Positions 529-22,565 are shown, counted from the first letter of the stretch. The stretch is DNA of 32,000 nucleotides from an uncultured Opitutales bacterium (GCA_934613415.1 CAKTSY010000002.1:1-32000), one strand, 5' to 3'. Program-made: numbers and translations. Notes: a model not told the origin generated them from the letters alone.

Positions 529-1015
529 TTATTCGACACCTTCTATCTCTTCATATACTAGCTCTTGAACATAATACTTCTTCCCCTTATAGGTGTAATA
601 CGGGTGTGCATATAAAAACAATCCGTCGTAGTTGCTAGCCAGCTCCAAATATTTGTTTATATCAAAATCTATAAACTGGTCGGAATTTGCGGTCATAAGG
701 GGGCTGTCGTTGTCGATTAGGGGTTCAGCTTTCAATACGGTACAAACTTGTCCTTCTGTAATGCCGTCTATGCCTATAATTTCAACGTCGTCGTCTAATC
801 TTTGCAAAAGTTCTTTTAGGCCATATTTTTTAATATGCTCGTTTTGGCATATGAAAATAAATTTATGCGGCCATTTGCGGTTTTAAGTTGTTAACAACAA
901 CCTCTATCATAGGTTTTCCGCAAACGTCTATAAGCGGTTTCGGCAAATCGTATCCTGCCTTTGAAAATCGGCTCCCCAAGCCAGCCATTGGTATGACAAT
1001 ATTTAATTTATTCAT
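529..1015 (-). pseudogene. Sugar-phosphate nucleotidyltransferase, frameshifted and apparently 3'-truncated
   Basis: The minus-strand ATG at 1015 opens MNKLNIVIPMAGLGSRFSKAGYDLPKPLIDVCGKPMIEVVVNNLKPQMAA*, with the stop at 863-865. This is the N-terminal G-x-G-x-R nucleotide-binding loop of sugar nucleotidyltransferases. The family-like sequence continues in the +1 frame (..KWPHKFIFICQNEHIKKYGLKELLQRLDDDVEIIGIDGITEGQVCTVL..MTANSDQF..AHPYYTY..) down to the stop at 529. The two frames can only be joined within about 866-885. The combined length of ~155 aa is shorter than the ~230-250 aa I remember for this family. The start overlaps the upstream stop by 8 nt (ATGAATAA). Confidence 0.7.
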
Positions 1016-2750
1016 ACTGTTCCTTTATTTTCTGGTATATTGATTTTTTGTTTTTGCACTTTGCGTAGTTTAGTTTGTGCACAAAAGATTTTTTTGTTAT
1101 TTCCTCCCAAAGCGGTTGGGAGAAATCTTTGTTTATATTTTTAAGCAAAAGATGGGGTATTGTGTCGTCGCAAATTTCGCAATTTAAGCTGCGAAAATAT
1201 TTATATTCGAGCATTACATCGAGCAATATATGGAGTATAAAATAGTGAGGGATTGACGGCTCGTTTTTTATATATTCGGTTAACAATTTTAACAATGCGC
1301 CTATTAACGGATTTTGTTTTTTTACAACAATAAAGCTGCTTAAGCTATTTACTCTGTTGTTGGGGTCCCACGAAAAATATTTGGGGTTAAACATTTCCCA
1401 TTCTTTATGGCAGGTTGGGCGCGCCCCTCTTTGAAACATAAAAAACGGCGCATCTTTAATGTTGTTTGGAATGTCGGACGAAAAGTAGCAGGTGGCATCT
1501 GCCCAAACCCCGCCATATGTATACAATAAATACAAGCGCAAAATATCCGAGAACAATGCCATCTTTGCGGGTTTTGCATTTAATGTTTTGTCGTATATAT
1601 AATCGGGGATATCCACATATTTAGATATTGTGTTTTTGTCTATAACTATGTGCTTTAGGGTTCCTTTATGGGTATCTGCCGATTTAAACGATATTTTCAC
1701 TACATCGCTTGAAATGTTCTCTTGCCCCTGATACCAAAATTGCCATAGCGAGCTGTTGTCGGCAATATCCGCCTTTTTTGGCAATGTTTGCAGTTCGGGA
1801 ATTTCGCCCTTTAAATAGGGCTCAACATAGTTTTTGCGCAGCTGCTCGGCCAATATATTTTGCTTTGAAAAATCGTTTTGTAAATTGCTTAGGCAAAATG
1901 TGCGCAGCCTTTTCCGTAGGGGTTTATAAGGAATTATAGAAGAAAGCCCCTTTAGTGCATATAAAAACGGAATGTGTGCATTAAGCTTTTTTAAGACAGA
2001 GCATAATTTATTGTATGCAGAAAAAGAGTGGTAATAAATGTCTTGTATGGTAGAAGTGGCAAATAAACTTTTTGTTTTTATTCGGTTCTTATTTCTGCCT
2101 GCAATTGTAGATTCAAATTCAGATTCGCTATATATATATGAATATGGGCGCAGCCCCAGCCTTTTAACTTTTGTATGCCAGTAAAAATCCGAATCGCTGT
2201 CTACCGGGCGGCCAAACGGTATGCAATTTTTTAAAAGTGTTTTTGCCGCATTGTACGAAACTGCATCTATTGGCGTTTCGCCCGAAAATCTTTTGTATTC
2301 GACAAACTCAAAACTGTTGCATGTGCGTATGGTTTTTGCTTTGTCTAGCCTGCCAGATTTTCTGTAGCCAAGCTGCAGGTAGCCGAAATCGCCATTATAG
2401 TTTTTTAAAAAATCTATTACTTTGCAAAGGTTGGCGTTTGGAATGGCATCGTCCTCTATAGTTATTGCAAAATCCAGGCGGTCTTCCACAATCTTTTGCC
2501 AGCAGTATATATGGCTAATGTAGCAGGCAATTTCCGCCTTCGACATATACCTTGTCATTAAGCGTTTGTTTAGTTGCTTAGAATAGTATTTGTTTATTTC
2601 GCTTTCCGAAAGATTTTGTGCATCGGCTGCCTCTATTCGCTCGAAGGATATATTTAAGCCAGACAGTATTTTTGAAATATTTGCCAACCTATCTGTAGCG
2701 CGGCGTAAATTTATAACAAAAACTTTATATCTTGTCCCAAGTCTGTCCAT
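1008..2750 (-). CDS. Two-domain glycosyltransferase: N-terminal GT25 fused to a C-terminal GT32-like / capsular-polysaccharide-synthesis (DXD sugar-binding) domain
   Basis: 580-aa ORF. The N-terminal ~250 aa carry GT25 hallmarks: YKVFVINLRRATDR, EIACYISHIYCWQKIV and ITIEDDA. The C-terminal ~250 aa carry WQFWYQG and ALFSDILRLYLLYTYGGVWADATCY, typical of the GT32/Caps_synth sugar-binding region. Confidence 0.8.
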   Translation of the reverse strand: MDRLGTRYKVFVINLRRATDRLANISKILSGLNISFERIEAADAQNLSESEINKYYSKQLNKRLMTRYMSKAEIACYISHIYCWQKIVEDRLDFAITIEDDAIPNANLCKVIDFLKNYNGDFGYLQLGYRKSGRLDKAKTIRTCNSFEFVEYKRFSGETPIDAVSYNAAKTLLKNCIPFGRPVDSDSDFYWHTKVKRLGLRPYSYIYSESEFESTIAGRNKNRIKTKSLFATSTIQDIYYHSFSAYNKLCSVLKKLNAHIPFLYALKGLSSIIPYKPLRKRLRTFCLSNLQNDFSKQNILAEQLRKNYVEPYLKGEIPELQTLPKKADIADNSSLWQFWYQGQENISSDVVKISFKSADTHKGTLKHIVIDKNTISKYVDIPDYIYDKTLNAKPAKMALFSDILRLYLLYTYGGVWADATCYFSSDIPNNIKDAPFFMFQRGARPTCHKEWEMFNPKYFSWDPNNRVNSLSSFIVVKKQNPLIGALLKLLTEYIKNEPSIPHYFILHILLDVMLEYKYFRSLNCEICDDTIPHLLLKNINKDFSQPLWEEITKKSFVHKLNYAKCKNKKSIYQKIKEQYE

Positions 2751-2848
2751 ATTTGCAGAAAAATCTATTCTTAAAATTAAAATACCACTGTGTATATTGT
2801 CGTAAGGTAAAAACCGTCCAAAGGGCGAATGCGCTGCAGAATGTGTCT

Positions 2849-3751
2849 TTAAAGTGTTTCATTTGTGTTGATTGGCAGTTTTACCCAGCTTGCGGGTACA
2901 ATGTCGCCATAGTCTATGTTTGCAAATTTTGTGAACCACTGGTTGGGGGCTATAACTGTTTTGTTGGGGTTGCGGTTTAGCCACGCGCACCACCAGCTAA
3001 AAGACGAATTAGAAATAATTTGATGCTTGCAGTTTGCCATTAAAAAGAAATCTTCAATTGCGCTGTTCGATTTTATCAACTTTGTTTGGTTGGATAATTC
3101 GAAGTTTTCGGCAACCCATTTGATGTCGTCGGATGCAATAAAAAATTTTAGGCCGCTATGGCGTTCGCGCAAATATGCAATGGCGCGCAGGTAGTATGGC
3201 AATGTGCAAACATAAAGGCGTTTTTTGTATTTAGGGTTTTTTATGTAGTCGCCGCGCCTTATGTGAATTGCAACCGAATTTGTGCTGCAAATTTCATCAA
3301 ACTGCGGGTGCTTTTGCAAAAGTTGCTCGTCGCGAAACGCAAAATCGGCTTTTACTGCGCCGGCAAAGTCGGCGAAATATTTTTCGCTTTGCCAGTAGCC
3401 GTCGTAATATGCCGAAGTTTTGTTGTTTGCAATGCTTGGCGTGTAGGCAAAAGTTTTTTCTAAAATATGCGTTGGCGCATATTTAAATGGAATTTTTAAC
3501 GCCTTCCAAAGCTTTTTTCTGAACGCAAAATTAGGCGTAATTAGGCCTTTTAAAATGTCGCTTGTTGCAAAATTCGGGGTAAGCAAAAAATTGTCTAGCG
3601 CATAGCCGCGGTTTTTCTTGGGGTTAAGTGCCGACAAATCTAAAAACAAATTCGACCCGTTCCTAAGCGAAAGCGCCCTGCCAAAGGCATATTGAAACAT
3701 TTGGTTGCCAAGGCCGCCCTGCAAGCGAATTACTGTGTATGTGTGCGCCAT
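2849..3751 (-). CDS. GT11 alpha-1,2-fucosyltransferase
   Basis: 300-aa ORF with the GT11 motifs VIRLQGGLGNQMFQYAFGRAL, HIRRGDY and SNSSFSWWCAWLN, as in FutC/WbgL-type enzymes. Its ATG shares nt 3751 with the upstream stop (TAATG). Confidence 0.9.
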   Translation of the reverse strand: MAHTYTVIRLQGGLGNQMFQYAFGRALSLRNGSNLFLDLSALNPKKNRGYALDNFLLTPNFATSDILKGLITPNFAFRKKLWKALKIPFKYAPTHILEKTFAYTPSIANNKTSAYYDGYWQSEKYFADFAGAVKADFAFRDEQLLQKHPQFDEICSTNSVAIHIRRGDYIKNPKYKKRLYVCTLPYYLRAIAYLRERHSGLKFFIASDDIKWVAENFELSNQTKLIKSNSAIEDFFLMANCKHQIISNSSFSWWCAWLNRNPNKTVIAPNQWFTKFANIDYGDIVPASWVKLPINTNETL

Positions 3752-4557
3752 TATTTTTTATTTAAATGTTTTGCGCGCAAAAGCATGTATTTTATTTTAT
3801 ATATTACGCGCGCAAAGGGGGTGTGATAATTTGCTTTTTTGTGCCCTATGTCGGATTCAATATCTCTTACTTTGCATAAGAAGGGGCATAACCCGTCTAT
3901 TGCAAGCGAAGTTTCCCAAGTATATTGCAAGTCTACATCTATGGGGCGGAAGAATCGCGAACGCTTCGCCAAAATTTCTTTTGCGCCTTCTTTTGTTATG
4001 GCATAGGCCTGCATTCCCATTGGCGGCTTGTTCCACTTTACCAATTCAAAAACAAATGGGGCCATAATTTGTTTTTCGCTTTTGGCTATGTTTTGGTTTT
4101 CAAACTTTTCGGTTGTGCAAGTTGCGGGGATTTCTACAGCAAAAGGCGTTCGCGAAAGTGCCTTTTTTGCCTTAAAGGGTGCCATTAACTTTATATAGTT
4201 CCATTTATGCTTTATTGCATTCAATGCAAAGGGAACCGCGTAGAAAAGGGGGTTTAATTCGATGTCGTCTTCCAAAACAATGCCGTAGTCGAGGTTTAAG
4301 TCTACAATTTTTTGGCACACTTTTAGGTGGCTAATGTAGCAGGCAATTTCGCCGCAGCTTAACCCAACAAAATAGTGTTTTTTGTTTAAAATAGCCGAAT
4401 AATAACTGCTTAAAAAAGCGTCCGAACAACTTTTGCCATCGGTTGCCGCAGAGCGTTCGTATGGCATGCCAAGCTTTTCAAGCTGCGCGTGCATATTCGC
4501 CCAACGGTCTACAGACCTGTCGAGATTTATAACAAACACCTTGTAGCTTTTTTGCAT
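3751..4557 (-). CDS. GT25 family glycosyltransferase (LgtB/Lic2B/LpsA-like)
   Basis: 268-aa ORF with YKVFVINLDRSVDRW, EIACYISHLKVCQKIV and IVLEDDI. It starts 18 nt after the stop of the giant ORF. Confidence 0.85.
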   Translation of the reverse strand: MQKSYKVFVINLDRSVDRWANMHAQLEKLGMPYERSAATDGKSCSDAFLSSYYSAILNKKHYFVGLSCGEIACYISHLKVCQKIVDLNLDYGIVLEDDIELNPLFYAVPFALNAIKHKWNYIKLMAPFKAKKALSRTPFAVEIPATCTTEKFENQNIAKSEKQIMAPFVFELVKWNKPPMGMQAYAITKEGAKEILAKRSRFFRPIDVDLQYTWETSLAIDGLCPFLCKVRDIESDIGHKKANYHTPFARVIYKIKYMLLRAKHLNKK

Positions 4558-4575: not shown

Positions 4576-7500
4576 TTATTTTCTACGCCTGAAAACTGCC
4601 AAGCCCAACGCCAGCGCGCCGAATATTGCAGCATAGGTTGCGGGCTCTGGGACCTGCGTTATAATTAAGCTGAATGTGTTTTCGTTTTTAACACAGCTCC
4701 AAGCGCCATCAAAGCTTTCGCCCAAAACAGTAAGCGATACGCATTCTTCTGGAATGTCTATAATAGAGCCGTCTTCAAACGAAATTAAGTCGAACTTATA
4801 TTCAACATTTTCTAAAAGCTCTTCGGTTATGTTTACGGTAAGCTTGCCGTCTATAACCAAACTTGCCAAAGATTCTACAAAAATCTGCGTCGGGTCGCTA
4901 GCTGAGGTGTCTATAACAAGCTCGCCGTTGCTTGCAATAGTAAGCGTCTTTTTATTTACTACGTCTAAGCGCGCGCCTGTGTCTAACTTAAGGGTTGCCC
5001 CGCCATAAACTGTTGCATCGCTTTCCGAAATTTTTGCGCTAATCATAGTTGTGTTAGCTAGATTAGGCGAGGGCGTGTATTTGCGAATTGTAAGGTTAGC
5101 GGCACTAGACGCCATTTCAAAGTTTTTAATAACGCCGTCGTCAAGTATGGTATTCTTGTAAATTGGCGTGCCGTCAATATCTGTAAGCGTTGCACCGCGC
5201 ATATCGGCATTCGTTAAATCTGTGCTGTCTAACACCGCGTAGGTAAGGTCCGAATTTTGGAGATTTTGATTTGCAAAGTTCCAACCCGAAAAATCGTTAT
5301 CGGAAAGATTTGTATTCGATAAATCGTGGTTTTTGTAGCTTGCAGTTGTATATAATTGTTTGCGCTCAAATGCGCTATATGTTGCCGCTGTAAAGTTTGC
5401 TCCGTTGATTTTCGCGTCGGTAAAATTGGTGTTAAGCAAATTCATATCAACAAAGCTCCAACCGTTTAGGTCGTTGTTCGAAAAGTTTATGCTGGCAAGC
5501 TTATCGTTTTTATAGGTTGCCGTTTTTTGGAACTGTTCGAATGTTAGCCCGTTTTGTGTAGTGCCCGAAAGGTTTGCATTTGCAAAGTCGGCATCGGAAA
5601 TATCTGCATTTTCAAAGCCTGCATTTGAAAGGTCTTTGTTTGCAAAGTTCCAGCCACTTAAGTTGTTGTTGGCTAGGTTCGTGTTTTGCAGAGAGCCTTC
5701 TAGGTAGCTTTTTGTTGAATAGAATTGTTCCTGTGTAAGGCCGTTTGCAACTGTGTAGGACAAGTTTGCTCCATCAATTTCGGCATCGGTTAAAACGGTT
5801 CCTGCAAGAATTGCATTTGAGAAATTCTGGTCTTTTAAATTCGCGCCAGCGAGATTAACGTTGGTAAAGTTTGTTTCCGAAAAGTTCTTGTCTAGATAGC
5901 TTTTGGTAGAATAGAGCTGGTCGAATTCGAATGCCGTTCCGGTAAGATTTGCTCCCGTTATGTTGGTGTTTGTCATTACGGTGTTTGCTGCTTTAATGTA
6001 GCTTAAATTTTTGCCCGAAAAATCCCAGCCGGAAATATCGTTGTTCGAAAAATCTATGTTCGAAAGGTCGCCGTCTTTATAGTTTTTGGTGCTGTAGAAT
6101 TGCTCTTTTGTAAGCCCGCGCGTCGTTGTGTTAGATAGGTTAGCTGCAGTTATATCGAGGTTGTCGAGTGTGGCATTGTTGAATGCGGTGCCAGAAAGGT
6201 TTTGCCCCGCAAAATTCCAATTGCTCAGGTTGTTTTCAGAGAAGTTGATGCCCGAAAGATTTTTGTCGGCATAGCTTTTTGTCGATTGCAATTGTTCTTC
6301 TGTAAAGCCGTTCGATGTTGCGCGCGTAAAGTTGGCGTTTGTTATTGTTGCGTTGTCGAACTTGGCGCGGGCTACGCTTGTGTCTACAAAACTGGCCCCC
6401 ATAAGGTTTTGGTCGGTAAAAGTAAAGCGGCGCATATTATTGCCGTCGAACTTCACCCCCGAAAGGTCTTTGTCGGCAAAGCTTTTTGTGGAGGTAATTT
6501 GTGCCGCCGTTATGTGGGAATAGCTTAAGTCTGCGTTGGTAATTATAGCGTTGCCGAAGGTCGCATTAACTACGTTGGCATTGGCCAGGCTTGTGCCCAT
6601 TAAATTTGCATTTGTAAATTTTACGTCGGTAAGAGTGCTGTTTTCAAGTTTTGTATTTGTTAAATCGGCATCGGTAAAATCCCAATTGGCCGCCGCAAAA
6701 TCGTTGTTAGAAAGGTTTATGTTTGTTAGCTTGTTCTTTGCCGTTTCCAACTGTGCCCTTGTCAAACCCTTTGTGGCGGTGTTCGAAAAGTTGGCGTTTG
6801 TTGTGTCTGCATTTGCAAAGCTTGTGTTTGCAAAAGTTGCATTTGTAAAGTCGCCATTGCTAAGTTTTGTGTTTTCAAGATTTGCGTTTGAAAAATCTGT
6901 ATCGGCAAAATTGGCGTTGGTTGCATCTGTTCCTACAAGGCTTGCGTTGGCAAGGCTTGCTTTGTTTATGCTTGCCCCCGTAAGGGTGCTATTTTCAATT
7001 TTAGCTCCGTTAAAATCAAGTTCGGTAAGAATCCAATTCGCAAAATCGTTGTTAGAAAGGTTTGCTCCTTTTATTGAAGAAGCCGTGCGCAATTGGATTT
7101 CGGCGAGCCCGTTTTTCGTAGTGCCTGCCAAATTAGCATTGGTGAGATTTGCGCGAACAAACACCGTATTTTTCAATGTTGCGTTCGAAAAATCTGCGCC
7201 AGTTAAATTTGTGTTTTCTAGGTTTGTATTTGCCAAATCAAGAGAGGACAAATCCCAACCAGAGAAATCGTTATTAGAAAAGTTTGTTCCGTCTACGCTT
7301 TCGGCTTCGCGCAACTGGCTTTGTGTAAATCCGTTTTGCGTTGCACCTGTAAAATTGGCGTGTACAAGATACGCATTTGCAAACGATGTATTTTTTAATG
7401 TTGCATTTGTAAGGTCTGCCCCTGCCAAGTTTGTATTGGCTAAGCTTGTGTTTGTTAAATCAAGAGAGGATAAATCCCAACCAGAGAAATCGTTATTAGA

Positions 7501-13937: not shown

Positions 13938-15248
13938 ATGCGCAGTTGGCTGGCGGTAGTTTTTTTAATGGTTTGCTCTTTGGGGTTTGCAAAGGGTGCC
14001 ATTAACGCGCGCTTTTTAGACGCCCTGTCGGAAACGGGCGTAATTTCGAAGATGGACGCCGACGCGGTAAAGAAGGAAAGCTCGTCTATAGAGCTATTGC
14101 TGCCGCAGGCGGAACCGCTTCTTAGAACCTTTCTTATTCTGCAAAACCGCTACACCTACGCGCAGCATAGCTATTTTAACGAGGCAAATTCAAGCCAGTC
14201 GCGCTTCGACATACGAAGGTTGTTGCCCGTTTTTATTGCAAACCCCACCGAAAACACAAGCGTGTTTGTAGCCGTATATTTGCCCAGCGATATGCCAATA
14301 AACAGCGCATTTGCAACTTTTAATTTTGAAAGCGAATATGTTTGCGGAACCTTTAAGGCGGGCTTTTTGGGGCCGAACTTTTCGATGGAAGAGCCCGACA
14401 GTTGCACAAACCTTTTTACGCCCGACAGAAATATTTTGTGCCTTTATTTCGGCGGCGGCGACGGCGGCATAGACGGCTATCGCAAAACGGCCTACGGAAC
14501 TTCGCTTGGCTTTTCGGGTAGCCACCCCGGCATATATTTCGACGGCTATCTGCCGACGCACAAAGAATATGTATATCAACTTGGCTTATCGAATTCTAAA
14601 AGCGACGCATTAACCATTAGGCGCGACAACGGCGTTATTGTTTGGCTTATGCTAGGTTACGAAAAGAAGTTTGAAGATTTTTCCGTAAAATTTGGCAGCA
14701 ATTTTGGCTACTCCACAAAAAGCGTTTCGGCAATAGCAAGTGGGGCGTCTTTGCCTAGCGAGATTGTAGATTGTGGAGACCTTTACGGCATAGACCCATA
14801 TTTTAGACTGGCAACCGAAAACTTTACTTTGCAGCTAGAATATATGATGGCGAAAGTTCAATACGGCAAAACCCAGTCAGACTTAATTCCCACATATACA
14901 ACCTCTTCGGGATATGCCGATCCACACGGCTTTAGTGCAATGGTTGCCTACAAGTTATTCGATTTAGGTAAGCTTGGTAAACTTGAGCCTATTTTTAGGT
15001 ATACCTACCTAAATACCGACGGCAAAGGGGTTAGGGAATGCGACGTTTTCTATAAATCGCCAAACGTAGGCGGTTTGTTCAACAAGGCCCACGCGTATTA
15101 TGCGGGCATAAATTGGTATATACGCGGCAGATACCTAAAATATGCAATGGGTATAGAGCATTTAGATTTTCAAGACTCGCCCATGGGGTTAGACAAAGGC
15201 TCGGCGTCGTCGGACATAGTTATAGGCCAGCTGCAGGTAATGTTTTAG
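13938..15248 (+). CDS. Outer-membrane beta-barrel porin, OprO/P (phosphate-selective porin O/P)-like
   Basis: 436-aa ORF with a signal peptide, alternating beta-strand-like segments, LEPIFRYTYLNTDG and YYAGINWYIRGRYLKYAMGIE, and a C-terminal aromatic residue (..LQVMF). It starts 9 nt after the GH28-like gene. Confidence 0.6.
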   Translation: MRSWLAVVFLMVCSLGFAKGAINARFLDALSETGVISKMDADAVKKESSSIELLLPQAEPLLRTFLILQNRYTYAQHSYFNEANSSQSRFDIRRLLPVFIANPTENTSVFVAVYLPSDMPINSAFATFNFESEYVCGTFKAGFLGPNFSMEEPDSCTNLFTPDRNILCLYFGGGDGGIDGYRKTAYGTSLGFSGSHPGIYFDGYLPTHKEYVYQLGLSNSKSDALTIRRDNGVIVWLMLGYEKKFEDFSVKFGSNFGYSTKSVSAIASGASLPSEIVDCGDLYGIDPYFRLATENFTLQLEYMMAKVQYGKTQSDLIPTYTTSSGYADPHGFSAMVAYKLFDLGKLGKLEPIFRYTYLNTDGKGVRECDVFYKSPNVGGLFNKAHAYYAGINWYIRGRYLKYAMGIEHLDFQDSPMGLDKGSASSDIVIGQLQVMF

Positions 15249-15267
15249 CTTTTGTGTGTGTTGCGTG

Positions 15268-15284
15268 TAGTATTTATAATACTA
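15268..15284. repeat. Near-palindrome B1 (tagtatttataatacta); candidate recombinase core site or operator
   Basis: 7-3-7 structure: TAGTATT-TAT-AATACTA. It is the exact reverse complement of B2 (17 of 17). Confidence 0.65.
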
Positions 15285-15298
15285 TTGTCAAGCAACAG

Positions 15299-15327
15299 TT
15301 GCATTTCGCTTAGTATTAACATAATAT
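15299..15327 (+). promoter_or_regulatory. Sigma70-like promoter candidate facing the 471-aa PEP-CTERM paralogue
   Basis: TTGCAT (15299-15304), a 17-nt spacer, then TAATAT (15322-15327). It lies inside the B1-B2 bracketed segment, and a GGAG sits ~8 nt before the ATG at 15484. The promoter consensus for this organism is unknown. Confidence 0.35.
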
Positions 15328-15421
15328 GTGCCTGCAATTTATCTGTGGGTTCATGTATTTTTTTGCATATACTTCCTCGAAGATATGATTTTTGGCAATG
15401 TTTTCGCAAATACAATGTATG

Positions 15422-15438
15422 TAGTATTATAAATACTA
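15422..15438. repeat. Near-palindrome B2 (tagtattataaatacta); candidate recombinase core site or operator
   Basis: 7-3-7 structure: TAGTATT-ATA-AATACTA. It is the exact reverse complement of B1 and lies 46 nt upstream of the ATG at 15484. Confidence 0.65.
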
Positions 15439-15483
15439 TATACAAAACGATATTTTAAAACTAAAATATAGGAGACTATTTGT

Positions 15484-16899
15484 ATGAAAAAAATATTGTT
15501 TGTATTGTGCATTTTTATGCCAAGCTATATTTTTGCGGATAACGAAGATTATAGTGGACAAGATGTTAGTGGAATGAATTTTTCTCTTGAAAGCAGAAGA
15601 AACTCAAAATGGGGAAATCTTATTGGAGCAAGAGGGACGATTTTTTCTGCGGGGACTGAATTTGGTTCTGGCACGGATTATACTAATGCCAGTTTTGGCA
15701 GTGCGAATTTGGCTGGAGCAATTTTTTCGGGGGCAAACCTGGCTGGTTCAAATTTTGAAAACTCAAGTATAAACGGCGCAAATTTTAGTAATGCAAATTT
15801 AGTTTCGTCCGACTTTTTCATAGCCGTAGATTTTACAGGGGCAGACTTTACGGGCGCAGTTGTAACCCATGCTGATTTTTCGGATACAACAAGAAATGGT
15901 TTTACAAAAGAGCAGTTGTATTCGACTAGAAGCTATAAAGAAAAATCAATGCAGGGCATGGGCTTTCTGGGAAATAATTTTGATGGTTGGGATTTCTCCG
16001 GGCAAGATTTAACCGGGGCGGATTTTTGTTGTACATCACTAAGCGGTACGAATTTTGATAATGCGATAATTACAAATGCAATGTTTAATAATTCTTCATA
16101 CATAGATAAGTCTACTATATATTCAACAAAAAGCTACAAGGAAAGAAATCTAATGGGAGTTAGCTTTTTAGGCCTTGATATATCGAGTTGGGACCTTAGC
16201 CGACAGTGTCTGATGCACGCTGTATTTAATTATACAACCCGCAGAAATGTAAAATTTTCATTTTCAGACCTAAGAGGCTCGTTTTTTGACGAAGAAGACA
16301 ATTCGGAAAACCTTCCTATTTACAAAAACACTATATTGTCAGATGGAGTAATTAAGAATTTTTCTATGACGTCTGCCGAGGAGAGTTTTAGTATTCGAAA
16401 ATATGTTCCGCTAAAAAATAGCGACAATGTAATTTCGGCAAAAATTTCTGAAAAAAATAGCGAAATTTTTGGTGGTGCGATATTGAATTTAGAGCCCGGT
16501 TCAAAACTTGAGATTTCGGCACAGAAGACATTGACTGTTCATGCCGATGGAACACTAGCTATTAGCACTTCAGTATTAGATTCAACTCAGATTTATCTTG
16601 GTGAAAATTCTGGTCTAATAATAAGTGGTAACCTTATAGTAAATATCGAAGAGGCCTTGGATGAAAATAAATTTTATAAATTTGATATAGTAGCATTTGA
16701 AGACAATAGCTTGTTAGATATAAAAGAAGAATGCGTATCTCTTAGTGTTATAGGCGAAGCATATAATGACTTTTGGTACTGCACTATCGAAAATGGAACG
16801 CTTAGCATAGTGATTCCCGAGCCTAGCAATGTGTGTTTAGCAATGTGTGTTTTTGCTCTAGGTTTCTTTGTTTACAAAAAAATAAAACATGTTGCATGA
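15484..16899 (+). CDS. Secreted pentapeptide-repeat protein with PEP-CTERM-like anchor; short paralogue of the giant protein
   Basis: 471-aa ORF with a signal peptide (MKKILFVLCIFMPSYIFA/DN) and pentapeptide runs (ANLAGAIFSGANLAGSNFENSSINGANFSNANL). It has two FTKEQLYSTRSYKEK-type linkers. Its C-terminal ~195 aa align with the giant protein's C-terminus and end IPEPSNVCLAMCVFALGFFVYKKIKHVA. Confidence 0.85.
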   Translation: MKKILFVLCIFMPSYIFADNEDYSGQDVSGMNFSLESRRNSKWGNLIGARGTIFSAGTEFGSGTDYTNASFGSANLAGAIFSGANLAGSNFENSSINGANFSNANLVSSDFFIAVDFTGADFTGAVVTHADFSDTTRNGFTKEQLYSTRSYKEKSMQGMGFLGNNFDGWDFSGQDLTGADFCCTSLSGTNFDNAIITNAMFNNSSYIDKSTIYSTKSYKERNLMGVSFLGLDISSWDLSRQCLMHAVFNYTTRRNVKFSFSDLRGSFFDEEDNSENLPIYKNTILSDGVIKNFSMTSAEESFSIRKYVPLKNSDNVISAKISEKNSEIFGGAILNLEPGSKLEISAQKTLTVHADGTLAISTSVLDSTQIYLGENSGLIISGNLIVNIEEALDENKFYKFDIVAFEDNSLLDIKEECVSLSVIGEAYNDFWYCTIENGTLSIVIPEPSNVCLAMCVFALGFFVYKKIKHVA

Positions 16900-16921
16900 G
16901 ATACACCCATTTTTTACGCAC

Positions 16922-20436: not shown

Positions 20437-22565
20437 AGATCGAAAAGCATTTGCTGGGAGTTGTCTTGAGTCTCTTTTGCGTTGTCGAAATCCGCCAATT
20501 TAAGGAATTCGGCTTCGCTTAGAATTTTTACACCGAGTTTTTCGGCTTCGGTTTTTTTAGAACCCGAGTTTTCGCCGCAAACCACATACGAAGTTTTTGC
20601 CGAAACGCTTGCCGAAACTTTGCCCCCCAAACTTTCTATAAGGGCTTTTGCCTTGCTTCGCTGCATGCTTTGCAATGTTCCCGTAAGCACAAAAGTGCTG
20701 CCTTTAAATTTGTCTAACACGGGTTTTGTGCGGTTTAAAAAGTTTACCCCGGCTTGGCGCAGTTTTTCTACCTGTTCTAAATTGTGCGGGTCGGCAAAGA
20801 ACGCGGTGATTGAGTCTACTAGAACTTCGCCTACCCCGTCTACCGCCAAAAGCTCTTCTTTTGTGGCGTTTTTTATGTTGTCCAGCGATCCGAATTTTGC
20901 CGCCAGGTCTTTTGCGGTTTTTTCGCCTATATTGAAAATGCCTATGGCAAAAAGCAGGCGCGGCAAATCCCTATTTTTGCTTTGCTCTATTGCATTTATA
21001 AGGTTTTGCGCGCTCTTTTCCTTTATGTTGTCTAGCGCAAGCAAATCGCTTTTTTTAAGCGAATAAATGTCGGAGGGAAACTTTACCAAATTTGCGGAAA
21101 CAAGCTTTTCTACAACCGCGCCGCCCAAGCCTTCAATGTCCATACAATCGCGCGAGGCAAAGTGCTCTAGCGCGCGTTTTATTCTGTCGGGGCAAAAGAA
21201 ATTAGGGCAACGCCAAACCGCCTGGCCTTGGTCGCGGACAAGCTTTGTATTGCATACGGGGCAGTATTCGGGGAATTTGAAGGGCTGCGAATTTGCTCCG
21301 CGCAAATCTTTGTCTACAACCTCTATTACCGCGGGTATTATTTCGCCCGCTTTTTCTATTAAAACCTTGTCGCCTTCGCGTATGTCTTTTCTGGCAAGCT
21401 CGTCGGCATTGTGTAGCGTAGCCCTCGAAACCGTGCTACCCGAAAGAAACACGCTTTCAAGCTCGGCGACAGGCGTAATTGCGCCCGTTCTGCCAACTTG
21501 CAAAGTTATCTTTTTTAAAGTGGTTATTGCCCTTTGGCTTTTATATTTCCACGCGGTTGCCCAGCGCGGCGACTTTGCCGTAAAGCCCGCCTTTTGCCAC
21601 AAAGAGCAGTCGTTAAGCTTTATAACCGCGCCGTCGGTATCGAAGGGAAACTTTGCCCTGATTTCGTCTAGCTGCATTATTGCGCTGTAGGCGGCGTCTA
21701 CCCCAACAACTTTTTGGCTCCACAAAAGGGGGCTTAAGCCCCAGCTTTTTAATGTATTAGGCAATGAGCTTTGAAAATCCAATTCAAAACCCTCGGCTTT
21801 TGCTATAAAATAGAATACCGATTCTAGCTCGCGCTTTTCAAGCTGCGTTTTGTCTAGCAATTTCATTGTGCCCGCCGTTAGGTTGCGCGGGTTTGCATAG
21901 GCGCGTTTTTGGGGCTTTTCGGGCAAGTCGGTGTTTTGGGCTTGTTCAAAAAAGTCGCTTTGGTTCTTTTGCTTTTTTGCCGCGTTTTGCGCTTCTTTTT
22001 CGGCGCAAAGCCTTTCAAATTCGGCGCGCGTCATATAAACTTCGCCTCTAATTTCCAAAAGGGCAGGTGGTGTTGGGGTGTTCAACACTTGGGCAATGCC
22101 CTTTATAATGCCTATGTTTTCGGTTATGTCTTCGCCCGTTTCGCCGTCGCCGCGCGTAAGCGCCCTAAGCAAAACGCCGTCTTTATATACAAGCGAAATT
22201 CCAGCCCCGTCTATTTTAGGTTCTATATTATATTCAAGCTCCTTAGTTTCGTCTATTTGCAGAGCCTTTTTTAGGCGGCTGTCGAATTCGCGCAATTCCT
22301 GAATGCTAAATACATTGTCTAGGCTTAGCATTGGCGAAAGGTGCTTTACCTTTTCAAAATCGTCGCCTAAGTCGCTTCCAACGCGCTTGCTTATAGAATC
22401 CGGCGAGTCGTATTGCGGGAAAACTTTTTCGAGCCTCACAAGCTCGTGCATAAGCGCGTCGTACTCGATATCGCTTACAAGGGGCGCGTTGTCTATGCGG
22501 TAGGCTCTCTCGTATTTTTCGAGCAGCTTTCTAAGCTCGATTATTCTGCTTTGTGCGCTATCCAT
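20433..22565 (-). CDS. ligA: NAD-dependent DNA ligase
   Basis: 710-aa ORF with the adenylation motif [13 protein letters not shown], a Zn-finger (CPVCNTKLV...WRCPNFFCP), an HhH region and a C-terminal BRCT-like domain ([10 protein letters not shown]). Confidence 0.93.

Follow-up and report, generated by a model that had tools for sequence, protein, structure and literature searches.

The 32,000-nucleotide (nt) stretch of DNA from an uncultured Opitutales bacterium analyzed in this study (GCA_934613415.1 CAKTSY010000002.1:1-32000, referred to as the window) harbors a 137-bp segment, designated seg2 (15285-15421), which is enclosed by two perfect 17-bp inverted repeats (IRs), B1 and B2, and is located upstream of a gene encoding a PEP-CTERM protein of 471 amino acids (aa). 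B1 and B2 very likely represent true recombination sites of an invertase family that is specific to a lineage of uncultured gut Opitutales and switches PEP-CTERM pentapeptide-repeat surface proteins. Seg2 is probably an orphan member of the corresponding family of small invertons. The family of sites is established, as are the inversion of a sister segment in the same window (seg1) and the position of the seg1 crossover inside the shared core. Inversion of seg2, the enzyme acting on it, and its ON orientation are what we infer for this locus, the probability that seg2 flips in vivo being placed at roughly 0.6. If active, the switch strongly favors one orientation in the guts sampled.

The repeats of seg2 and the sister inverton seg1

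B1 (15268-15284, TAGTATTTATAATACTA; TAGTATT-TAT-AATACTA) and B2 (15422-15438, TAGTATTATAAATACTA; TAGTATT-ATA-AATACTA) are 17-bp lox-like sites sharing the core GTATT-N3-AATAC, and match each other as reverse complements at 17 of 17 positions, with 137 bp between them and 154 bp from start to start. Each represents a 7-3-7 palindrome with 7-bp arms and a 3-nt center (TAT in B1 and ATA in B2). Compared as direct repeats, the two sites mismatch at all three center positions; their direction is set by the center alone and, judged by the center, the pair is inverted. An additional TAGTATT arm was found at 15311-15317 by sequence search. No recombinase gene adjoins seg2, which represents the only orphan site pair among all loci examined. 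These features, namely the exact reverse complementarity with 7-bp arms and TAT/ATA centers, the third arm, and the lack of an adjacent recombinase gene, had been named in the original prediction and were all borne out. Per 32-kb Markov simulation, 0.01 perfect 17-nt inverted repeats with a spacing of 20-400 nt were expected and one was observed, which excludes the B1/B2 pair as a coincidence.

A mismatch-tolerant search of the window with the B1/B2-type site yielded two further sites, and the motif GTATT-N3-AATAC occurs in the window at these four positions only (11220, 11394, 15268, and 15422). The additional sites, A (11220-11236, TCGTATTTAAAATACGA; TCGTATT-TAA-AATACGA) and B (11394-11410, TAGTATTTTAAATACGA; TAGTATT-TTA-AATACGA), are mutually inverted by their centers (TAA/TTA) and enclose the 157-bp segment seg1 (11237-11393), which carries a TTGACA box on the minus strand (11238-11243). 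Seg1 is located between a divergent operon encoding proteins of 316 and 1889 aa and a tyrosine recombinase gene (11410-12411), the final A of site B being the A of the recombinase start codon ATG.

The same locus was retrieved from human-gut assemblies (Hadza and others) by exact-protein look-up, and the contigs obtained match the window with 99.9-100% identity. Seg1 is inverted in the assemblies ERZ27286970 (k141_1242806) and ERZ4561717 (NODE_6693), represented by L002/L014 and L009/L013, while the remainder is 100% identical to the window; reverse-complementing 11220-11410 in silico resulted in zero mismatches to these contigs. The arm polymorphisms at positions 2 (C/A) and 16 (G/T) of the seg1 sites exchange partners in the inverted contigs and, therefore, the crossover took place inside the shared core. 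Altogether, seg1 is reversed in two out of three same-strain contigs spanning it. Since it is inverted in otherwise identical contigs and also in the related locus L015 of a metagenome-assembled genome (MAG; approximately 89% identity, labeled uncultured Opitutales), seg1 is a bona fide invertible segment.

The sites of seg2 closely resemble those of seg1. The B1 arm variant TAGTATT is also present in the functional seg1 site at 11394, and the central 7 bp of B1/B2 (TTTATAA) are one base off those of seg1 (TTTAAAA). The earlier proposal that the repeats bracket a recombination-type segment is thus supported by arms shared with the pair beside the recombinase gene 11410-12411. The center of seg2 is unlike that of seg1, yet matched between B1 and B2; because both sites share one non-seg1 center, matched crossover regions appear to have been maintained in seg2.

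The inverton family and its candidate recombinases

Nine recombinase-linked invertons share one architecture, namely seg1 of the window, L015, L016, L017, L020, the L038 and L040 types, L046, and L091. Their site pairs follow the pattern nnGTATT-N3-AATACnn and are separated by 167-178 bp from start to start in each full copy examined; seg2, with 154 bp, is slightly shorter, lying inside the range of 150-180 bp set for the family. The centers within a pair are reverse complements of each other (TAA/TTA, TAG/CTA, ATA/TAT, and ACA/TGT; TAT/ATA in seg2), and a TTGACA box lies exactly one base inside one IR in all nine invertons as well as in seg2. In the latter, the box (15286-15291, minus strand) is located one base from B1 and is directed outward through B1 towards the upstream porin gene, where it would act as a putative -35 element. 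In all full family copies examined, the recombinase ATG starts on the final base of one IR, a feature that seg2 lacks, and an operon for pentapeptide/PEP-CTERM or DUF5122 proteins is oriented divergently from the recombinase gene in each copy. Within 486 kb of fetched related DNA, the core motif was found solely in the form of such pairs. The assignment of B1 and B2 to this family follows from the core, the matched inverted centers, and the TTGACA-N1 box of seg2.

The family is multi-copy. An Opitutales reference MAG encodes at least four full recombinase paralogues (91, 75, 69, and 67% identity), in addition to fragments at contig ends, and modules of the same type contain P0083 and P0076, both distantly homologous to the 471-aa protein; another was found on one IMG/VR contig (L091). 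The P0083 switch was detected in both orientations across samples (L038/39/41/42 vs. L040/43/44/45). The recombinase is multi-copy in the MAGs CAKUIA01 (L015-L024) and JAXFOH01 (L018, L019, and L023), and several contigs stop inside a paralogue, indicating that assemblies are broken by this gene family. At the P0083 switch, contig L038 (4224-4240 and 4391-4407; also L039, L041, and L042) features the left center AAG opposite its partner CTA, which corresponds to a one-base crossover mismatch. These four AAG-center contigs occur in a single orientation with TTGACA towards the surface operon, and the AAG/CTA variant may represent a naturally locked switch.

Two further ideas concerning the family were considered. 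A unique center serving as a 'barcode' that insulates each switch was weakened by recurring centers (TAA in L015 and L020, TAG in L016 and L017, and TAT in seg2 and L046). A scan of viral contigs for TTGACA combined with the site returned 48 matches, 46 of them being single-site, and L082 carries two sites 2 kb apart; these are unrelated, leaving L091 as the only family member.

In every paralogue, the recombinase start on the last IR base occurs without a Shine-Dalgarno sequence (window 11394-11412, L015 7985-8003, L016 7955-7973, L017 4748-4766, L046 1330-1348, and L091 1860-1878). Furthermore, an IR-embedded TATTNT is located approximately 7 nt upstream of the recombinase start in every paralogue. 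This arrangement hints at a leaderless recombinase mRNA whose -35 element would change with the state of the switch.

The recombinase gene 11410-12411 (plus strand, 333 aa) is the only one in the window and is located 3.9 kb upstream of seg2; its product is a candidate invertase for both segments. It matches the Pfam family Phage_integrase (PF00589) with an E-value of 3.5e-13, exceeding the gathering score, and the residues R200, K227, R284, H307, and Y317 are invariant in the alignment of the recombinase paralogues. The box II residues 281-285 read DVLRH in all paralogues, the first histidine of the HxxR motif apparently, as read from the alignment, being replaced by aspartate (D281). Among the curated NCBIfam models for XerC/XerD/XerA and integron integrase, the recombinase remained far under every cut-off (best value 51 bits vs. 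220 for XerA), and its sole PDB sequence match was XerA (5hxy, E = 3e-6). Its product is the obvious enzyme for flipping seg1 and, since the seg1 pair inverts in nature, it is a proven or near-proven invertase for sites near-identical to B1/B2.

A second candidate enzyme for seg2 is suggested by the L046 module (L046-48), which encodes a 381-aa recombinase paralogue (L046:187-1332, minus strand) with 63% identity to the enzyme of the window, and whose switch site shares its central 7 bp with B1/B2. The paralogous recombinase-plus-inverton module (L046 1332-1523) was found in ERZ27286970 and ERZ4559859, which are samples of the window's strain, and its inner sequence, judged by eye, closely resembles seg1. 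Accordingly, the earlier statement that 11410-12411 is the sole candidate holds for the window, but not for the samples, which also contain this paralogue.

As a mechanism, it is proposed that B1 and B2 would act as lox-like core sites, in which inverted recombinase-binding arms (GTATT / AATAC) surround a short asymmetric AT center. A tyrosine recombinase encoded elsewhere would synapse both sites and exchange strands within the core that is identical in the two, thereby flipping the intervening 137 bp. Candidates for this function are the neighboring enzyme 11410-12411, whose own sites use the TAGTATT arm, or the 63%-identical paralogue with the same central 7 bp. The flip would change the promoter elements abutting the fixed flank, which is located 45 bp upstream of the 471-aa gene, and the surface protein would consequently be ON or OFF in a subpopulation.

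Promoter elements, orientation, and alternative explanations

Several promoter-like elements on the plus strand face the 471-aa gene. TTCGCA-16-TATTAT (15403-15430), with its -10 hexamer inside B2, represents a consensus match only (9/12), and TTTGCA-16-TATGAT (15362-15389), located inside seg2, also reaches 9/12, which is within shuffle expectation. Outside seg2, the fixed flank right of B2 begins with the hexamer TATACA (15439-15444, plus strand), which is part of the plus-strand element TATACA-17-TAAAAT (15439-15467), and a Shine-Dalgarno-like AGGAG (15470-15474, plus strand) precedes the ATG at 15484 by 9 nt. The element TTGCAT-17-TAATAT (plus strand) had been put forward previously as the best sigma70-like sequence of this region. 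It is indeed present at 15299-15327, but reaches 7/12 as compared to 9/12 for two other elements, is not included in the scan listing, and ranks below TATACA-17-TAAAAT. A weak terminator-like hairpin was noted at 15330-15350.

Two arrangements of promoter elements are conserved in the family. In arrangement (a), a TTGCA-type hexamer (TTGCAA, TTGCAT, TTGCAG, or TTGATG; TTCGCA in seg2) is located 17-18 nt (16 nt in seg2) before the IR-embedded TATTNT at the box-free end. In seg2, this arrangement presently faces the 471-aa gene; a transcription start site close to 15437 and a leader of 45 nt that includes AGGAG are predicted from it. In arrangement (b), the perfect TTGACA reads out through the other IR, and an 18-nt spacer places the -10 element on the first six bases of the flank. 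These hexamers are TAGCTT, TAGGCT, TACTCC, TATACC, TGCTCA, TACTCT, TAATCA, or TACTCA in the flanks of surface genes and TATACA in the right flank of seg2; the recombinase flanks feature TGGACA or TGAACA, neither of which could serve as a -10 element. Inversion of seg2 would thus be expected to create TTGACA-N18-TATACA ending 39 nt before the ATG. Under arrangement (b), seg2 is now OFF, because its TTGACA faces the porin gene, where it meets CACGCA, and most paralogous switches in the assemblies would be OFF as well. That the promoter is aimed at the 471-aa gene, as had been assumed, is uncertain, since the family TTGACA box points away from this gene. Assigning ON and OFF from the promoter consensus was given up, because scan counts equal those of shuffled sequences and the two conserved arrangements conflict.

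Arrangement (b) can be extended to a scheme of multi-locus antigenic variation based on a split promoter, which is regarded as rather doubtful. According to this scheme, the TTGACA on the segment would be productive only when docked, via the 17-bp site, to a -10-like hexamer in the flank, and the recombinase genes would possibly be leaderless, with the IR-embedded TATTNT serving as -10 element. Seg2 would be OFF in all sampled guts and turned ON by a recombinase encoded elsewhere, with most paralogous switches being OFF and one or a few ON.

A number of results weigh against an active seg2 switch. In the original prediction, seg2 was described as having what is expected of an invertible promoter, but the comparison of assemblies revealed only the forward orientation, namely in 8 out of 8 distinct contigs (from eight sample accessions, some maybe representing the same individuals), which had been obtained by exact-protein look-ups of the 471-aa protein, the porin, the recombinase, and LysRS. 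The eight contigs are part of a total of 21 carrying the 471-aa gene, and a look-up of the 230-nt flank gave one place only. The junction strings of the in silico inverted segment read GCGTG-TAGTATTTATAATACTA-CATACATT and GCTTGACAA-TAGTATTATAAATACTA-TATACAAAAC, and the inverted left-junction 30-mer had 0 exact matches in JGI metagenome contigs and GTDB genomes. Small open reading frames that would be specific to the inverted state had not been called at any locus. Moreover, three Logan k-mer-graph assemblies cross B1 and B2 unbroken. All four arms of seg2 represent the A/T variant (positions 2 and 16), which is present in one of the four arms of the proven sites, and this could imply a low affinity of the recombinase for seg2. 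Regarding the promoters, promoter-like matches showed no excess (3 vs. 2.1 +/- 1.3 in shuffles), and arrangements (a) and (b) point in opposite directions, so that no ON/OFF logic is established. Since minority orientations are invisible in consensus assemblies, the single orientation observed is to be read as 'strongly biased or locked' and not as 'never flips'.

The alternatives have to be considered with regard to the region in which seg2 resides. Together with the 471-aa gene, it forms a low-GC cassette of approximately 1.7 kb (15249-16917; guanine-plus-cytosine (GC) content of 0.35-0.38 vs. 0.45 in the flanks), which is not present in relatives at 88-95% nucleotide identity. In the relatives L015, L018, and L027, the porin stop codon is followed after approximately 25-32 bp by the terminator that lysS and the porin gene share; 15249-16917 is missing, and with it both the gene and the repeats. 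The Logan contig L037 (ERR7738624) stops at window position 16920, i.e., at the cassette boundary, and this sample may contain strains carrying the cassette alongside others lacking it.

Among the alternatives, a locked or relic inverton, which came with the 471-aa cassette, no longer flips, and now serves as a fixed promoter region, is considered rather unlikely, although it is the most probable of them. Possible causes are the lack of a resident recombinase accepting four arms of the A/T variant or selection maintaining a single state. The single orientation in eight assemblies and the inverted junction missing from two collections are in line with this explanation, as are the minority A/T variant in all four seg2 arms and the cassette being an indel of deviant GC content, which may have been parted from its cognate enzyme. 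The possibly locked, naturally mutated switch within the family (L038 type, AAG vs. CTA) provides a further parallel. In contrast, 17/17 matching sites with a shared non-seg1 center argue for maintenance over decay, the TAGTATT arm is functional in seg1, a recombinase paralogue with the identical central 7 bp at its site occurs in the same samples, and minority orientations escape consensus assemblies.

That B1 and B2 serve to insert or excise the 471-aa cassette, instead of flipping a promoter, is very improbable. The region 15249-16917 is indeed present or absent as a unit in close relatives, and one contig stops at its boundary. However, neither end of the cassette (15249 and 16917) falls on B1 or B2, which are therefore not its attachment sites. 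Both sites are located on a single side of the gene and form an inverted pair separated by 154 bp, a geometry that gives inversion and not excision, and no site was found at the other end of the cassette or at the empty locus of the relatives.

Equally little speaks for an operator pair, on which a dimeric transcription factor would bind B1 and B2, approximately 15 helical turns apart, and repress the 471-aa promoter by looping without any recombination; this explanation was given marginally less credence than the preceding one. The 7-3-7 palindromes bracketing promoter-like sequences would fit such a pair, but the near-identical seg1 sites were seen recombined with exchange of arms, and the homologous P0083 sites were recombined too. 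Furthermore, the sites are inverted by center in every family pair, which would be needless for a symmetric operator, and family sites always accompany a tyrosine recombinase gene, with the ATG built into one site. The least credible explanation is an RNA-level stem acting in processing or attenuation of a porin read-through transcript, or an AT-rich coincidence: although no terminator separates the porin gene from seg2 and the weak hairpin at 15330-15350 resembles one, no Rfam match was obtained in a scan of 15100-15600, the expectation for such repeats is 0.01 per window, and homology to proven DNA recombination sites fully accounts for them.

Related switches, target gene, and genomic surroundings

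The closest known system, by analogy, is Tsr19 (BF2766) of Bacteroides fragilis, where one tyrosine recombinase flips the local promoter IVp-I and the distant, recombinase-less promoter IVp-II (PMC4747536). Both the local-plus-orphan logic proposed here and the targets, which are surface structures of a gut commensal, correspond to that system (PMC4747536). In contrast to Tsr19, the switches described here belong to a different phylum, and their recombinase falls outside all curated families. They feature 17-bp lox-like palindromes with a 3-nt asymmetric center and a recombinase start codon within the IR, and constitute a multi-copy family, one MAG containing no fewer than four full paralogues. 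Flipping of the distant segment was not observed here.

The E. coli element fimS with FimB/FimE (and IpuA/IpbA/HbiF) likewise represents a short invertible promoter adjoining its tyrosine recombinase gene(s), and switching can be biased towards one state. With a length of 314 bp and IRs of 9 bp, it depends on IHF and Lrp. In contrast, the segments described here comprise 137-161 bp, the 17-bp sites are themselves palindromic, and the targets are PEP-CTERM proteins instead of fimbriae. Paralogous recombinases of such systems can act on more than one switch (PMC6083910).

Several of the RecV switches of Clostridioides difficile (flg, cmr, and cwpV) lie far from their recombinase, one of them being 174 bp long with 19-bp IRs, and some occur almost wholly in one orientation under given conditions (PMC9286219). 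Their IRs are imperfect and vary by switch, whereas one strict core is found here and each recombinase paralogue has its own cis switch. As in Cre/loxP and FLP/FRT, two inverted binding arms are combined with an asymmetric crossover region that sets the direction. Identical centers are required of partner sites in those systems and are found within each pair here, whereas they vary from pair to pair. Unlike in these systems, the arms have a conserved core of 5-7 bp as compared to 13 bp, the natural role is gene switching, and the center measures 3 nt when defined by symmetry and up to 7 nt when the arm is restricted to the invariant GTA/TAC. Akkermansia was found to possess the most intergenic invertons per genome in a survey (5.55; PMC10028968). 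It shares the phylum (Verrucomicrobiota) and the habitat with the bacterium studied here, but the order differs (Opitutales, uncultured), and the likeness drawn here concerns the occurrence of invertons.

A text search of the literature returned no paper describing phase variation of PEP-CTERM proteins under the control of DNA inversion. Provided that seg2 flips, a recombinase encoded elsewhere would render a strain-specific PEP-CTERM pentapeptide-repeat surface protein of an uncultured human-gut Opitutales member phase-variable. The proven seg1 and at least two more paralogous modules suggest that this lineage diversifies its surface by small DNA switches, as do Bacteroides and Akkermansia. 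The strict consensus TTGACA-N-nnGTATT-N3-AATACnn provides a simple means of searching MAGs for such switches when no read data exist. That one tyrosine recombinase can flip both a local and a distant promoter is a well-established concept, so the advance is incremental.

The product of the putative target gene of seg2 (15484-16899, plus strand) comprises 471 aa and combines a signal peptide and pentapeptide repeats with a PEP-CTERM-like tail (IPEPS, a transmembrane segment, and KKIK). Its identity to residues 1396-1889 of the 1889-aa PEP-CTERM protein amounts to 35%, and the description of the target as a short PEP-CTERM paralogue was thus confirmed, its relative being encoded beside the proven switch. 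A search for sequence variants of this protein, which might have led to other strains, yielded none; the protein forms a single 100% cluster, and the next homologue is 37% identical.

The divergent operon beside seg1 (4576-11197, minus strand) comprises the genes for the 316-aa protein (10247-11197) and the 1889-aa pentapeptide-repeat PEP-CTERM protein (4576-10245). The 316-aa protein (minus strand) is without a signal peptide, and its sole match is a sub-threshold CAP12/Pycsar TIR domain (E = 0.001). Its role as a conserved accessory factor was rejected, the positional counterparts being only 13-22% identical. Downstream of the 1889-aa gene, three glycosyltransferase genes (GT25/Caps_synth, GT11, and GT25) are located at 1008-4557, and a run of glycosyltransferase genes also follows the pentapeptide gene of the P0083 module. 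The switch may co-regulate protein glycosylation or a surface glycan.

Finally, a run of seven cytosines (C7, approximately 20623-20629) was noted in ligA (minus strand, window 20620-20690). In one assembly (L003/L010), ligA is split into two open reading frames by a frameshift near this run, the place being estimated from the overlap of the reading frames, and two independent contigs (L002 and L009) stop at 20683. The neighborhood of the C7 run is possibly a hot spot of slippage or assembly breaks.

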